The notes under the pieces are model-generated. The model made no database searches, had not been told where the DNA came from, and saw nothing but the letters and a program-made list of their open reading frames with translations. From assembly GCF_003334335.1 (NCBI RefSeq), contig NZ_QOWQ01000024.1: a stretch of DNA of 64,000 bases. One strand, given 5' to 3'. Positions 8,193 to 25,650 of the stretch are shown here, one piece after another (position 1 is the first letter of the stretch; every line of letters starts with the position of its first letter). The stretch comes from Escherichia coli (GTDB taxonomy: Bacteria; Pseudomonadota; Gammaproteobacteria; Enterobacterales; Enterobacteriaceae). The translations under genes were made by a program, and so were the position numbers.

Positions 8193-10472
8193 ATGGATGA
8201 CCAGTTAAAACAAAGTGCACTTGATTTCCATGAATTTCCAGTTCCAGGGAAAATCCAGGTTTCTCCAACCAAGCCTCTGGCAACACAGCGCGATCTGGCG
8301 CTGGCCTACTCACCAGGCGTTGCCGCACCTTGTCTTGAAATCGAAAAAGACCCGTTAAAAGCCTACAAATATACCGCCCGCGGTAACCTGGTGGCGGTGA
8401 TCTCTAACGGTACGGCGGTGCTGGGGTTAGGCAACATTGGCGCGCTGGCAGGCAAACCGGTGATGGAAGGCAAGGGCGTTCTGTTTAAGAAATTCGCCGG
8501 GATTGATGTATTTGACATTGAAGTTGACGAACTCGACCCGGACAAATTTATTGAAGTTGTCGCCGCGCTCGAACCAACCTTCGGCGGCATCAACCTCGAA
8601 GACATTAAAGCGCCAGAATGTTTCTATATTGAACAGAAACTGCGCGAGCGGATGAATATTCCGGTATTCCACGACGATCAGCACGGCACGGCAATTATCA
8701 GCACTGCCGCCATCCTCAACGGCTTGCGCGTGGTGGAGAAAAACATCTCCGACGTGCGGATGGTGGTTTCCGGCGCGGGTGCCGCAGCAATCGCCTGTAT
8801 GAACCTGCTGGTAGCGCTGGGTCTGCAAAAACATAACATCGTGGTTTGCGATTCAAAAGGCGTTATCTATCAGGGCCGTGAGCCAAACATGGCGGAAACC
8901 AAAGCCGCATATGCGGTGGTGGATGACGGCAAACGTACCCTCGATGATGTGATTGAAGGCGCGGATATTTTCCTGGGCTGTTCCGGCCCGAAAGTGCTGA
9001 CCCAGGAAATGGTGAAGAAAATGGCTCGTGCGCCAATGATCCTGGCGCTGGCGAACCCGGAACCGGAAATTCTGCCGCCGCTGGCGAAAGAAGTGCGTCC
9101 GGATGCCATCATTTGCACCGGTCGTTCTGACTATCCGAACCAGGTGAACAACGTCCTGTGCTTCCCGTTCATCTTCCGTGGCGCGCTGGACGTTGGCGCA
9201 ACCGCCATCAACGAAGAGATGAAACTGGCGGCGGTACGTGCGATTGCAGAACTCGCCCATGCGGAACAGAGCGAAGTGGTGGCTTCAGCGTATGGCGATC
9301 AGGATCTGAGCTTTGGTCCGGAATACATCATTCCAAAACCGTTTGATCCGCGCTTGATCGTTAAGATCGCTCCTGCGGTCGCTAAAGCCGCGATGGAGTC
9401 GGGCGTGGCGACTCGTCCGATTGCTGATTTCGACGTCTACATCGACAAGCTGACTGAGTTCGTTTACAAAACCAACCTGTTTATGAAGCCGATTTTCTCC
9501 CAGGCTCGCAAAGCGCCGAAGCGCGTTGTTCTGCCGGAAGGGGAAGAGGCGCGCGTTCTGCATGCCACTCAGGAACTGGTAACGCTGGGACTGGCGAAAC
9601 CGATCCTTATCGGTCGTCCGAACGTGATCGAAATGCGCATTCAGAAACTGGGCTTGCAGATCAAAGCGGGCGTTGATTTTGAGATCGTCAATAACGAATC
9701 CGATCCGCGCTTTAAAGAGTACTGGACCGAATACTTCCAGATCATGAAGCGTCGCGGCGTCACTCAGGAACAGGCGCAGCGGGCGCTGATCAGTAACCCG
9801 ACAGTGATCGGCGCGATCATGGTTCAGCGTGGGGAAGCCGATGCAATGATTTGCGGTACGGTGGGTGATTATCATGAACATTTTAGCGTGGTGAAAAATG
9901 TCTTTGGTTATCGCGATGGCGTTCACACCGCAGGTGCCATGAACGCGCTGCTGCTGCCGAGTGGTAACACCTTTATTGCCGATACATATGTTAATGATGA
10001 ACCGGATGCAGAAGAGCTGGCGGAGATCACCTTGATGGCGGCAGAAACTGTCCGTCGTTTTGGTATTGAGCCGCGCGTTGCTTTGTTGTCGCACTCCAAC
10101 TTTGGTTCTTCTGACTGCCCGTCGTCGAGCAAAATGCGTCAGGCGCTGGAACTGGTCAGGGAACGTGCACCAGAACTGATGATTGATGGTGAAATGCACG
10201 GCGATGCAGCGCTGGTGGAAGCGATTCGCAACGACCGTATGCCGGACAGCTCTTTGAAAGGTTCCGCCAATATTCTGGTGATGCCGAACATGGAAGCTGC
10301 CCGCATTAGTTACAACTTACTGCGTGTTTCCAGCTCGGAAGGTGTGACTGTCGGCCCGGTGCTGATGGGTGTGGCGAAACCGGTTCACGTGTTAACGCCG
10401 ATCGCATCGGTGCGTCGTATCGTCAACATGGTGGCGCTGGCCGTGGTAGAAGCGCAAACCCAACCGCTGTAA
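8193..10472 (+). CDS. maeB: NADP-dependent malic enzyme (malic enzyme + phosphotransacetylase-like domain)
   Basis: 759-aa [26 protein letters not shown]... Confidence 0.95.
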
Positions 10473-10514
10473 TTTTTTTTAACTCTCACGCTTACCCTGA
10501 ATATTCAGGGTAAG
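10473..10514 (+). terminator. T9 run followed by perfect 24-bp palindrome cttaccctgaat/attcagggtaag downstream of maeB
   Basis: Seen directly; atypical geometry for an intrinsic terminator (U-tract precedes the hairpin). Confidence 0.35.
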
Positions 10515-10764
10515 CAGTTTAGCTGCAATATATTAGTAAAGCTTATTACTGAGTTTGCGAATAATAAAAAAAAGCAGTCTATATAATATCTCGATATTAT
10601 TTTATTTATATTCATGCGTTGCATATGAAAGTTTATGCACCACAGCGAATATCTCTCCATTCTTAGTGATCTACCTCACCTTTTAAACGCGCTTGCCGAA
10701 TTTTGTTATTTACTCTGACGAAAAATTGTCACGATACACGAAAGTTTTTCACAGGCGGCGACTC

Positions 10765-11100
10765 ATGGATAAAGAACGCATCATTCAGGAATTTGTGCCC
10801 GGCAAACAGGTCACACTGGCGCATCTCATCGCGCATCCCGGTGAGGAACTGGCGAAGAAAATCGGCGTTCCGGATGCGGGCGCAATTGGCATTATGACGC
10901 TAACTCCCGGCGAAACGGCGATGATCGCCGGTGATTTAGCGCTGAAAGCCGCTGATGTGCATATCGGTTTTCTCGACCGATTCAGCGGTGCATTGGTGAT
11001 TTATGGCTCGGTGGGCGCAGTAGAAGAAGCGTTATCACAAACCGTCAGCGGTTTAGGTCGCTTATTAAATTATACGCTTTGTGAAATGACCAAAAGTTAA
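10765..11100 (+). CDS. eutS: ethanolamine-utilisation microcompartment shell protein EutS
   Basis: 111 aa from ATG 10765 ([21 protein letters not shown]...); first gene of eut operon after an AT-rich promoter region. Confidence 0.9.
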
Positions 11101-11112
11101 TACGAGGCATTC

Positions 11113-11592
11113 ATGAAACGAATTGCGTTTGTGGGTAGCGTCGGGGCAGGAAAAACAACGTTATTTAATGCGTTGCAGGGGAATTATACCCTCGCCAGAA
11201 AAACACAGGCCGTGGAATTTAATGATAAGGGCGATATTGATACGCCGGGTGAATATTTTAACCATCCCCGCTGGTATCACGCCTTAATTACCACGCTACA
11301 GGATGTAGACATGCTGATCTATGTCCATGGCGCAAATGACCCGGAAAGTCGGTTGCCTGCCGGGTTGCTGGATATTGGCGTCAGCAAACGGCAAATCGCC
11401 GTCATCAGTAAAACGGACATGCCAGATGCTGACGTCGCCGCAACGCGAAAGTTATTGCTTGAGACGGGCTTCGAAGAGCCGATTTTCGAGCTAAACAGCC
11501 ACGACCCGCAAAGCGTGCAGCAACTGGTGGATTATCTGGCATCTCTCACCAAACAGGAGGAAGCAGGTGAAAAAACTCATCACAGCGAATGA
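11113..11592 (+). CDS. eutP: EutP/PduV-family GTPase-like protein
   Basis: 159 aa, Walker A GSVGAGKTT. Confidence 0.9.
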   Translation: MKRIAFVGSVGAGKTTLFNALQGNYTLARKTQAVEFNDKGDIDTPGEYFNHPRWYHALITTLQDVDMLIYVHGANDPESRLPAGLLDIGVSKRQIAVISKTDMPDADVAATRKLLLETGFEEPIFELNSHDPQSVQQLVDYLASLTKQEEAGEKTHHSE

Positions 11593-17069: not shown

Positions 17070-18246
17070 ATTGCAGACCGCGCTCTTTCAGGCGTTCGAT
17101 ACCCTGAATCTGCAACGGGTAAAAACATTTAGCGTTCCACCGGTGACGCTTTGCGGTCCGGGCTCGGTGAGCAGTTGCGGACAGCAAGCGCAAACGCGTG
17201 GGCTGAAACATCTGTTCGTGATGGCAGACAGCTTTTTGCATCAGGCAGGGATGACCGCCGGGCTGACGCGTAGCCTGACCGTTAAAGGTATCGCCATGAC
17301 GCTCTGGCCATGTCCGGTGGGCGAACCGTGCATTACCGACGTGTGTGCAGCCGTGGCGCAGTTGCGTGAGTCAGGCTGTGATGGGGTGATCGCGTTTGGC
17401 GGCGGCTCGGTGCTGGATGCGGCGAAAGCCGTGACGTTGCTGGTGACGAACCCGGATAGCACGCTGGCAGAGATGTCAGAAACCAGCGTTCTGCAACCGC
17501 GCTTGCCGCTAATTGCCATTCCAACTACCGCCGGAACCGGCTCTGAAACCACCAATGTAACGGTGATTATCGACGCGGTGAGCGGGCGCAAGCAGGTGTT
17601 AGCCCATGCCTCGCTGATGCCGGATGTGGCGATCCTCGACGCCGCATTGACCGAAGGTGTGCCGTCGCATGTCACGGCGATGACCGGCATTGATGCGTTA
17701 ACCCATGCCATTGAAGCATACAGCGCCCTGAACGCTACACCGTTTACCGACAGTCTGGCGATTGGTGCCATTGCGATGATTGGCAAATCGCTGCCGAAAG
17801 CGGTGGGCTACGGTCACGACCTTGCCGCGCGCGAGAGCATGTTGCTGGCTTCATGTATGGCGGGAATGGCGTTTTCCAGTGCGGGTCTTGGGTTGTGCCA
17901 CGCGATGGCGCATCAGCCGGGCGCGGCGCTGCATATTCCGCACGGTCTCGCGAACGCCATGTTGCTGCCAACGGTGATGGAATTTAACCGGATGGTTTGT
18001 CGTGAACGCTTTAGTCAGATTGGTCGGGCACTGCGAACTAAAAAATCCGACGATCGTGACGCTATTAACGCGGTAAGTGAGCTGATTGCGGAAGTTGGGA
18101 TTGGTAAACGACTGGGCGATGTTGGTGCGACATCTGCGCATTACGGCGCATGGGCGCAGGCCGCGCTGGAAGATATTTGTCTGCGCAGTAACCCGCGTAC
18201 CGCCAGCCTGGAGCAGATTGTCGGCCTGTACGCAGCGGCGCAATAA
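17059..18246 (+). CDS. eutG: iron-containing alcohol dehydrogenase EutG
   Basis: 395 aa from ATG 17059 (MQNELQTALFQAFDTL...); overlaps eutJ end. Confidence 0.9.
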   Translation: MQNELQTALFQAFDTLNLQRVKTFSVPPVTLCGPGSVSSCGQQAQTRGLKHLFVMADSFLHQAGMTAGLTRSLTVKGIAMTLWPCPVGEPCITDVCAAVAQLRESGCDGVIAFGGGSVLDAAKAVTLLVTNPDSTLAEMSETSVLQPRLPLIAIPTTAGTGSETTNVTVIIDAVSGRKQVLAHASLMPDVAILDAALTEGVPSHVTAMTGIDALTHAIEAYSALNATPFTDSLAIGAIAMIGKSLPKAVGYGHDLAARESMLLASCMAGMAFSSAGLGLCHAMAHQPGAALHIPHGLANAMLLPTVMEFNRMVCRERFSQIGRALRTKKSDDRDAINAVSELIAEVGIGKRLGDVGATSAHYGAWAQAALEDICLRSNPRTASLEQIVGLYAAAQ

Positions 18247-24051: not shown

Positions 24052-24552
24052 ATGATCAATGCACTGGGATTGCTGGAAGTGGACGGCATGGTCGCCGCGA
24101 TAGATGCAGCGGATGCCATGCTCAAAGCAGCTAACGTTCGTCTGCTCAGTCACGAAGTGCTTGACCCTGGTCGCTTAACGCTGGTGGTGGAAGGCGATCT
24201 GGCGGCGTGTCGTGCGGCGCTGGACGCAGGTTGTGCTGCCGCGATGCGTACCGGGCGTGTCATCAGCCGCAAGGAGATCGGTCGGCCAGACGATGACACC
24301 CAGTGGCTGGTTACTGGCTTTAACCGCCAGCCGAAGCAACCCGTAAGGGAACCCGACGCGCCAGTTATCGTCGCGGAATCTGCTGACGAGTTGTTGGCGC
24401 TGTTAACATCAGTACGTCAGGGAATGACGGCAGGAGAAGTGGCTGCCCACTTTGGCTGGCCGCTGGAAAAAGCCAGAAATGCGCTCGAACAGCTCTTTTC
24501 TGCCGGGACGTTACGTAAACGCAGTAGTCGTTATCGTCTCAAGCCCCATTAA
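24052..24552 (+). CDS. eutK: BMC shell protein EutK
   Basis: 166 aa from ATG 24052 (MINALGLLEVDGMVAAIDA...), SD ggagg 6 nt upstream; ORF track starts at upstream TTG 24046. Confidence 0.88.
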   Translation: MINALGLLEVDGMVAAIDAADAMLKAANVRLLSHEVLDPGRLTLVVEGDLAACRAALDAGCAAAMRTGRVISRKEIGRPDDDTQWLVTGFNRQPKQPVREPDAPVIVAESADELLALLTSVRQGMTAGEVAAHFGWPLEKARNALEQLFSAGTLRKRSSRYRLKPH

Positions 24553-24597
24553 CCTGTCGGAGGTGCCGGGTGTCCTACAACACCCGGCATTAACATC

Positions 24598-25650
24598 ATG
24601 AAAAAGACCCGTACAGCCAATTTGCACCATCTTTATCATGAACCCTTACCCGAAAACCTGAAGCTCACGCCGAAGGTCGAAGTGGATAATGTTCATCAAC
24701 GACAGACAACGGATGTCTATGAACATGCTTTAACGATTACCGCCTGGCAGCAGATTTACGATCAGCTGCATCCGGGCAAGTTTCATGGTGAATTTACGGA
24801 AATTCTACTCGATGATATTCAGGTTTTTCGTGAATACACCGGTCTGGCGCTGCGTCAGTCGTGCCTGGTCTGGCCGAACTCGTTCTGGTTTGGCATTCCG
24901 GCGACGCGCGGTGAGCAGGGATTTAACGGTTCGCAATGTCTGGGAAGCGCGGAAATCGCCACCCGCCCTGGTGGCACTGAATTTGAACTGAGCACGCCGG
25001 ATGATTACACGATCCTGGGCGTGGTGCTTTCTGAAGATGTCATCACCCGGCAGGCTAACTTTTTGCATAACCCGGATCGGGTATTACATATGTTGCGTAA
25101 CCAGTCGGCGCTGGAAGTGAAAGAGCAGCATAAAGCCGCGCTGTGGGGCTTTGTCCAACAGGCGCTGGCGACGTTTTGCGAGAATCCGGAAAATCTCCAT
25201 CAGCCTGCAGTGCGAAAAGTGCTGGGGGATAATTTGCTAATGGCGATGGGGGCCATGCTGGAAGAAGCGCAACCAATGGTGACGGCGGAAAGCATCAGTC
25301 ATCAGAGTTACCGTCGATTGCTTTCCCGCGCCCGTGAATATGTGCTGGAAAACATGTCCGAACCGGTGACGGTGCTGGATTTGTGTAATCAACTGCATGT
25401 CAGCCGCCGCACGCTACAAAACGCGTTTCACGCTATTTTAGGCATTGGCCCGAACGCGTGGCTGAAACGCATTCGCCTGAACGCCGTACGCCGCGAACTG
25501 ATAAGTCCGTGGTCGCAAAGTATGACGGTAAAAGACGCCGCCATGCAGTGGGGATTCTGGCATCTGGGGCAATTTGCCACGGATTACCAGCAGCTGTTTT
25601 CCGAGAAGCCGTCACTGACGCTGCATCAGCGGATGCGGGAGTGGGGGTGA
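24598..25650 (+). CDS. eutR: AraC-family transcriptional activator EutR
   Basis: 350 aa; C-terminal AraC HTH. Confidence 0.9.

Follow-up and report, generated by a model that had tools for sequence, protein, structure and literature searches.

Organization of the maeB-eutS intergenic region

The window, i.e. the whole stretch of 64 kb of DNA that was analysed, is of the E. coli K-12 type. Its positions 9770-10970 are identical to positions 2,575,600-2,576,800 of the MG1655 genome on the reverse strand (window position = 2,586,570 - x, where x is the MG1655 coordinate), and a 451-bp query taken around the palindrome that is the subject of this analysis shows 100% identity to the E. coli laboratory strain BM28. 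The palindrome lies between maeB, which ends with a TAA stop codon at 10470-10472, and eutS, whose ATG is at 10765, and its location between maeB and eut was therefore given correctly in the earlier note on this DNA. The features of the region are the following:

8193-10472, + strand: maeB coding sequence (NADP-dependent malic enzyme, 759 aa), from the ORF list and the RefSeq annotation of the identical K-12 sequence
10473-10489, + strand: spacer of 17 nt from the stop codon to the hairpin, consisting of a T8 run (10473-10480) followed by AACTCTCAC; polymorphic
10490-10515, + strand: perfect palindrome of 26 bp, with arms of 13 + 13 nt and no spacer between them
10516-10524, + strand: decayed U-tail, AGTTTAGCT, whose first 8 nt contain 3 T in K-12 and 4 T in the majority allele
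10525-10612, + strand: AT-rich, C-poor spacer, the most polymorphic part of the intergenic region as judged from the variable sites in the alignment
10613-10730, + strand: stretch with more C than G (C>G), a candidate rut/termination zone (28 C and 18 G in 118 nt; C/G of about 2)
10658-10764, + strand: eutS upstream block (TTCTTAGTGATC...TTGCCGAATTTTGTTATTTAC...), presumed to be the eut promoter and leader from its cross-genus conservation
10765-11100, + strand: eutS coding sequence, the first gene of the eut operon, from translation and annotation

The eutS upstream block contains invariant columns in an alignment of 11 Enterobacteriaceae and no variable site among five E. coli strains, and the C>G stretch (10613-10730) overlaps this conserved eut promoter block. 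The U-tail and the AT-rich spacer that follows it (10516-10524 and 10525-10612) together represent the larger part of an AT-rich segment of about 140 bp (10516-10657) that is found in Escherichia between the hairpin and the eut promoter block. This segment is missing in Citrobacter, K. oxytoca, Yokenella and Pseudocitrobacter, and a shorter version of it is present in SCPM-O-B-8794.

No sigma-70-like promoter was called by a consensus promoter scan over positions 10000-11200. An RpoS-holoenzyme genomic-SELEX peak has been located somewhere in the eutS-maeB spacer (PMC5493296), and this is the only context in which our literature search found the spacer named; the peak concerns a promoter and is unrelated to the palindrome. 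Nothing relevant on a maeB terminator, the maeB 3' UTR or Rho at maeB came out of the literature searches, and no usable EutR motif was found in a paper on K. pneumoniae eut.

The spacer between the maeB stop codon and the palindrome had previously been described as containing a T9 run, whose position ahead of the palindrome had been taken as a ground for doubting a terminator. The run is in fact T8 (10473-10480). Of the strains that were read, just K-12 and ST540 have it without interruption. ST131, O145, D8 and AST262 carry TTCTTTTTT or TTCATTCTT in its place, and the same region differs again in other Escherichia species. Since it is conserved neither across strains nor across species, the upstream T-run is a strain-level accident. 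The relevant tail is the one downstream of the palindrome, which is U-rich in sister species.

Anatomy of the palindrome and predicted RNA structure

The two arms of the palindrome (GCTTACCCTGAAT at 10490-10502 and ATTCAGGGTAAGC at 10503-10515) show 100% complementarity. The perfect 24-bp palindrome reported earlier corresponds to its core (10491-10514), which is real, and only the size has to be corrected, to 26 bp for the full palindrome. Moreover, most E. coli strains have G rather than A at position 10516, so that the perfect palindrome extends to 28 bp in them. With its 26 bp at 10490-10515, it is the longest perfect palindrome in the 64-kb window, the runner-up having 16 bp, and this length was reached in none of 200 first-order Markov shuffles (maximum 24 bp). 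Perfect stems of at least 10 bp occur at eight loci in the window, all of them in spacers at gene ends or tRNA ends; the size of the palindrome is therefore beyond chance for the window, yet perfect stems of at least 10 bp are not rare.

When folded as RNA of the maeB strand, the sequence is predicted to form an 11-bp stem, with G-C in 6 of the 11 pairs, closed by a 4-nt loop (AUAU), with a dG of -19.5 kcal/mol. The hairpin begins 17 nt 3' of the maeB stop on the coding strand. Shuffles of this 30-nt hairpin gave -3.6 +/- 2.0 kcal/mol (z = -8), and both the MFE and the centroid fold contain the hairpin in all the sequence contexts tried, larger ones included. The stem has 12 bp and spans 10489-10516 in most E. 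coli, the energies of the 11-12 bp stems ranging from -19.5 to -20.4 kcal/mol. An Rfam covariance-model scan of positions 10300-10900 (E <= 10) returned four chance-level matches, with E of at least 1.4 and far under the gathering scores.

Two other perfect hairpins in the window also lack a U-tail. One is a G+C-rich hairpin of 10 bp at 24564-24589 (TGCCGGGTGT-CCTACA-ACACCCGGCA), which occupies the 45 nt separating an ORF that ends at 24552 from another that starts at 24598; judging from the known order of the eut genes, these are presumably eutK and eutR, and the hairpin may attenuate or stabilise transcripts. The second, also of 10 bp (TACTGCCGGG-AGC-CCCGGCAGTA, 53861-53883), has no T-run on either side and is located between convergent ORFs that end at 53850 (+) and 53889 (-). 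Neither of the two has a Rho region or a 3' end in Adams et al. 2021. The presence of these two hairpins indicates that U-less hairpins at gene ends are commonplace, and the maeB hairpin is an ordinary feature of a kind already known.

In addition, the same terminator-like hairpin (AAAAAAGCGCCTTTAGGGCGCTTTTTT) occurs twice in the window, 154 bp apart (58265-58291 and 58419-58449), each copy being followed by ACATTGGTGGGTCGTGCAGGA. The copy at 58419-58449 abuts a tRNA-Lys gene (58452-58527, - strand), and the copy at 58265-58291 is followed by a tRNA 3'-end fragment only. This arrangement resembles a partial duplication of the end of the tRNA, of a kind often seen at integration sites.

Variation within E. 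coli

BLAST queries of 38 nt and 30 nt found one locus per E. coli genome, the median of two BLAST places per genome corresponding to both strands of the one palindrome locus. A repeated or mobile element, REP/BIME included, is ruled out by this single locus per genome. Of 5411 E. coli records, 5245 (97%) have an intact palindrome. The only common variant within E. coli, a single C->T in the left arm that produces a U-G wobble on the maeB strand, was seen in 152 records, among them ST540 and a B-derived laboratory strain. A stem-breaking C->A beside the loop is present in one O157:H7 genome. A comparison of five E. coli strains showed variation in 22 of 293 intergenic columns and in none of the 26 columns of the palindrome (P = 0.13), a difference that is not significant, so that the conservation of the palindrome within E. 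coli is statistically indistinguishable from that of its flanks.

The maeB-eutS spacer is also a site of rearrangement. In E. coli 19AR0656, the hairpin is gone together with eutS and the beginning of eutP, and an IS1 element is found in their place (L002 3124-3900). In the divergent "E. coli" MSB1_4I, a gene coding for a family-4 glycosyltransferase is inserted on the opposite strand between the hairpin and eutS, and an IS1 is located after eutS (L089 1101-2171 and 2911-3608); despite this insertion, the hairpin remains beside maeB.

Comparison across genera and Escherichia lineages

Eighty loci were taken from species-representative genomes by means of the MaeB C-terminus, and the sequence after the stop codon was read in each of them. 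The strongest hairpin starts 14-20 nt after the maeB stop in all 21 tabulated maeB-eutS loci from outside Escherichia (Citrobacter species, K. oxytoca, K. pneumoniae, Yokenella and Pseudocitrobacter). Most of these loci display a textbook terminator, with a stem of 8-14 bp followed by 6-7 T in 8 nt, for example GGCGCGGG-TTTCT-CCCGCGCC followed by TTTTTATTTT. K. pneumoniae ATCC 13883 has two serial hairpins after the maeB stop (L020 1970-2050), the first without a U-tail (CGCGCGGA...TCCGCGCG) and the second (GGCAGGC...GCCTGCC) followed by TTTTTAATT. This double hairpin may be an intermediate between the canonical and the E. coli arrangement.

The Escherichia lineages harbor, at offset +17, a stem that is different from that of the other genera. 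Its arms, GCTTAC[C/T]CTG ... C[A/G]GGGTAAGC, are kept in four lineages besides E. coli proper, namely E. whittamii, Escherichia sp. MOD1-EC7003, SCPM-O-B-8794 and the divergent "E. coli" MSB1_4I. The loop varies among Escherichia in both sequence and length (4-7 nt), with AATATT, TTTATT, GATTATT and AGTAATT. The tails that follow the stem are:

Escherichia sp. MOD1-EC7003: GTTTTATT, 6 T in the first 8 nt
E. whittamii: ATTTTTAT, 6 T in the first 8 nt
E. coli, majority and K-12: GTTTAGCT and AGTTTAGC, 4 and 3 T in the first 8 nt, respectively
SCPM-O-B-8794: GTTAAGTC, 3 T in the first 8 nt

E. whittamii and Escherichia sp. MOD1-EC7003 thus combine the same stem, with G-U wobbles, with a tail as U-rich as is usual for a terminator.

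The substitutions that preserve pairing in the core stem give a U-G wobble on the maeB strand and an A-C mismatch on the opposite strand. In the divergent species, the predicted energy of the hairpin ranges from -16.3 to -19.6 kcal/mol on the + strand and from -7.5 to -15.6 kcal/mol on the - strand, and 95.8% of the cells are paired on the + strand versus 91.7% on the - strand. The independent substitution events behind these figures are few: three favour the + strand, and the G->A of K-12 at the outermost pair favours the - strand. With three or four independent events, one of them opposite, this strand evidence is only suggestive of a role at the RNA level. A covariation test of the stem found no compensatory double substitution, all the variation being one-sided, and because double-sided changes are absent it neither proves nor disproves the structure. 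A terminator of a minus-strand transcript was considered and discarded, since the hairpin is followed there by GTGAGAGTTAAAAAAAA, an A-run, and therefore is no terminator on that strand, where the stem variants also create A-C mismatches.

The hairpin could be a decayed relic, that is, a former terminator hairpin without function in E. coli that has been kept since the species is young. Such an origin would agree with the decay of the U-tail in both E. coli and SCPM-O-B-8794, with the non-significant conservation within the species and with the stem-breaking C->A variant of the O157:H7 genome. However, the arms are retained across the Escherichia lineages although the flanking spacer and the downstream sequence have heavily diverged, the changes in the core stem mostly preserve pairing through wobbles, and the stem is perfect in 97% of the 5411 E. 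coli records, which makes the loss of all function rather improbable.

The comparison also bears on the proposal of the earlier note that the palindrome is a protein-binding operator. A dyad-symmetric DNA site for a dimeric regulator, which would control eut or insulate it from maeB, fits the perfect dyad symmetry of 26-28 bp through the centre in E. coli and the position upstream of the eut promoter; the RpoS-holoenzyme SELEX peak also falls in the spacer, though as a promoter-related signal rather than a palindrome site. Against such a site, some 260 bp separate the centre of the palindrome from the eutS ATG downstream of it and more than 140 bp separate it from the conserved promoter block, and the palindrome is absent from Citrobacter, Klebsiella and Yokenella, which have the eut promoter block. 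In other Escherichia species, moreover, the spacing of the arms is 1 bp larger, the centre is asymmetric and one arm alone is changed, and in E. coli a near-full-length sequence is found at a single locus per genome. No paper containing the sequence was found by a literature search with the 16-nt palindrome core. The search for further copies of the half-site that had been suggested was run on the 64-kb window and revealed no excess, with two extra one-mismatch matches compared with 0.75 expected for all matches. These two copies (ATACCCTGAAT, 17099-17109 and 46683-46693) lie outside any palindrome, and finding two of them is compatible with chance. To our knowledge, the palindrome fits no E. 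coli operator consensus (ArgR, Cra, LexA, MetR, TyrR); its 11-6-11 layout recalls Xer/dif-type recombination sites, but since the arms are, as far as we know, unlike those of dif, cer and psi, such a site seems unlikely. For a site that is single-copy and variable in its arm spacing, with a half-site that is not enriched and no match in the literature, a role as operator is extremely improbable.

Termination of the maeB transcript

A stable, G+C-containing stem-loop is present just downstream of maeB, as in intrinsic terminators, and its tail in E. coli is poorer in U than the U-tract of such terminators (about 5 or more U in 8 nt). A consensus scan for promoters and terminators over the hairpin made no terminator call. 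The earlier view that this is not a canonical intrinsic terminator in either direction is borne out by these results, i.e. by the 3-4 T in the 8 nt after the stem and by the outcome of the consensus scan.

Termination in the spacer is instead documented for Rho. Supplementary file 2 of Adams et al. 2021 (PMC7815308) gives Rho termination regions obtained by DirectRNA-seq with and without bicyclomycin, and one of its entries reads 2575860, -, orphan, 161, 21, 195, 140, 5.50, 1.5e-13 (PMC7815308). This Rho region, at MG1655 2,575,860 on the - strand, has a Rho score of 5.5 (p = 1.5e-13), with a coverage upstream/downstream of 161/21 without the drug and of 195/140 with bicyclomycin (PMC7815308). 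It corresponds to window position ~10710 on the maeB strand, inside the C>G stretch (10613-10730), about 195 nt downstream of the hairpin and 55 nt short of eutS, a position that is coarse and does not single out the hairpin itself because the score windows are 800 nt wide. According to the coverage in Adams 2021, read-through across the spacer increases from 13% to about 72% when Rho is inhibited, and the drop in coverage is 7.7-fold normally and 1.4-fold under Rho inhibition. Most of the termination in the spacer is thus Rho-dependent, and the hairpin alone therefore stops at most a minority of the transcripts. The residual drop of about 28% with bicyclomycin could represent the share of intrinsic termination (28% or less), and the drug could also lift the downstream signal through de-silenced promoters.

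The 85 nt that follow the hairpin (10516-10600) are C-poor, with 10.6% C and C/G below 1, so that the rut-like stretch is not directly adjacent to it. The curated Term-seq 3' ends of Adams 2021 (PMC7815308) include none in MG1655 2,575,800-2,576,099, an interval that comprises the hairpin, and maeB is absent from the TERMITe supplements. The palindrome had also been proposed as a boundary element separating maeB from eut. It does stand at the functional boundary between the two, the actual boundary in K-12 being the Rho region located about 195 nt downstream.

These data also concern the possibility that the hairpin is a leaky but working intrinsic terminator of maeB, with release at about 10520-10525 and Rho as a backstop only. 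In favour of it are a location that matches that of the canonical terminators in other genera, the good U-tail that follows the same stem in sister species, the strength of the stem (-19.5 to -20.4 kcal/mol), the three or four U found within 5 nt of the stem, and a coverage that in the presence of bicyclomycin is still about 28% lower downstream (195 vs 140). However, a tail of merely 3-4 T in 8 nt that elicits no call from the consensus scan, the restoration of most of the read-through by bicyclomycin (13% to 72%) and the lack of a curated Term-seq 3' end at the hairpin argue against it, and we consider a terminator of this kind possible but unlikely.

A probable 3'-end hairpin of the maeB transcript

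We favour, with a probability of roughly 0.6, the interpretation that the palindrome is a decayed intrinsic terminator whose main role today is to stabilise the 3' end of a maeB transcript terminated by Rho. The broader claim, namely that the element acts in one way or another as a hairpin at the 3' end of an RNA, is highly probable. It would then act as RNA and not as a DNA site, constituting the first structured element of the maeB 3' UTR, and its stem would be a descendant of, or a replacement for, the intrinsic terminator found at the same offset in other Enterobacteriaceae. In the ancestor of Escherichia, the hairpin was probably an intrinsic terminator, as it still seems to be in E. whittamii. 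In the lineage of E. coli, the U-tail would have decayed to (A/G)GUUUAG, as a consequence of which RNA polymerase would mostly read through the hairpin. Transcription would then be stopped by Rho about 200 nt past the hairpin, in the C>G stretch at the edge of the eut promoter. We infer that the RNA released by Rho is shortened by 3'-to-5' exonucleases until they reach the hairpin, the first strong structure in their path, which by blocking them would set and protect the mature 3' end of the maeB mRNA. The hairpin may in addition provide a minor share of factor-independent termination.

A more elaborate role, in which the hairpin and the Rho site together would form a tunable read-through valve from maeB into the eut operon, is very doubtful. 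Read-through into eut would be possible because E. coli has lost the U-tail. If such a valve existed, a weakened Rho, or a protein bound to the hairpin or to the DNA dyad, would let maeB transcription enter eut, and this read-through would be independent of EutR, ethanolamine and B12. It would also couple the expression of malic enzyme to the basal expression of microcompartment genes.

The interpretation as a 3'-end hairpin gives a conspicuous palindrome of the best-studied bacterial genome a likely function, and has little import beyond annotation. It suggests that an intrinsic terminator can lose its U-tail inside one genus, the stem staying in place and Rho taking over termination. Furthermore, when the maeB-eutS spacer is used as a eut promoter fragment, the fragment contains the maeB 3' hairpin, and users of such fragments should consider that maeB read-through is restrained mainly by Rho.

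Comparison with known systems

The maeB palindrome resembles REP/BIME elements in being an intergenic palindrome at a gene end that may stabilise the upstream mRNA against 3' exonucleases, and differs from them in being single-copy and unrelated in sequence to REP. REP-like elements are present after maeB in the Enterobacter and Leclercia loci, and their sequence is different from that of the E. coli palindrome.

With the canonical terminators that follow maeB in Citrobacter, K. oxytoca, Yokenella and S. enterica arizonae, the hairpin shares position, orientation and a comparable stem energy. However, its tail in E. coli has 3-4 U in 8 nt, whereas theirs have 6-7, its stem is longer and less G+C-rich, and most of the termination in the E. 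coli spacer is sensitive to bicyclomycin.

The third system is the class of Rho-dependent E. coli transcripts described by Dar & Sorek 2018 (PMC6061677), which end precisely after stable stem-loops. These stem-loops have neither U-tails nor upstream A-tracts, show C>G enrichment downstream, and protect the transcripts against PNPase and RNase II (PMC6061677). The maeB hairpin is likewise a stable stem-loop just after the coding sequence without a U-rich tail, it has no A-tract upstream (the T-run and AACTCTCAC being found there), and it is followed by Rho-dependent termination downstream of maeB (Adams 2021, PMC7815308). Members of the class have a precise 3' end after the stem, whereas none is present for maeB in the curated Term-seq data of Adams et al. 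The C>G stretch is also located downstream of the maeB hairpin, but begins about 100 nt after the stem and not immediately. With the placement of this stretch being ambiguous in that respect, the maeB hairpin would, by analogy, fit the class of Dar & Sorek on three features: the U-poor stem-loop at the gene end, the lack of an upstream A-tract and the Rho-dependent termination downstream.
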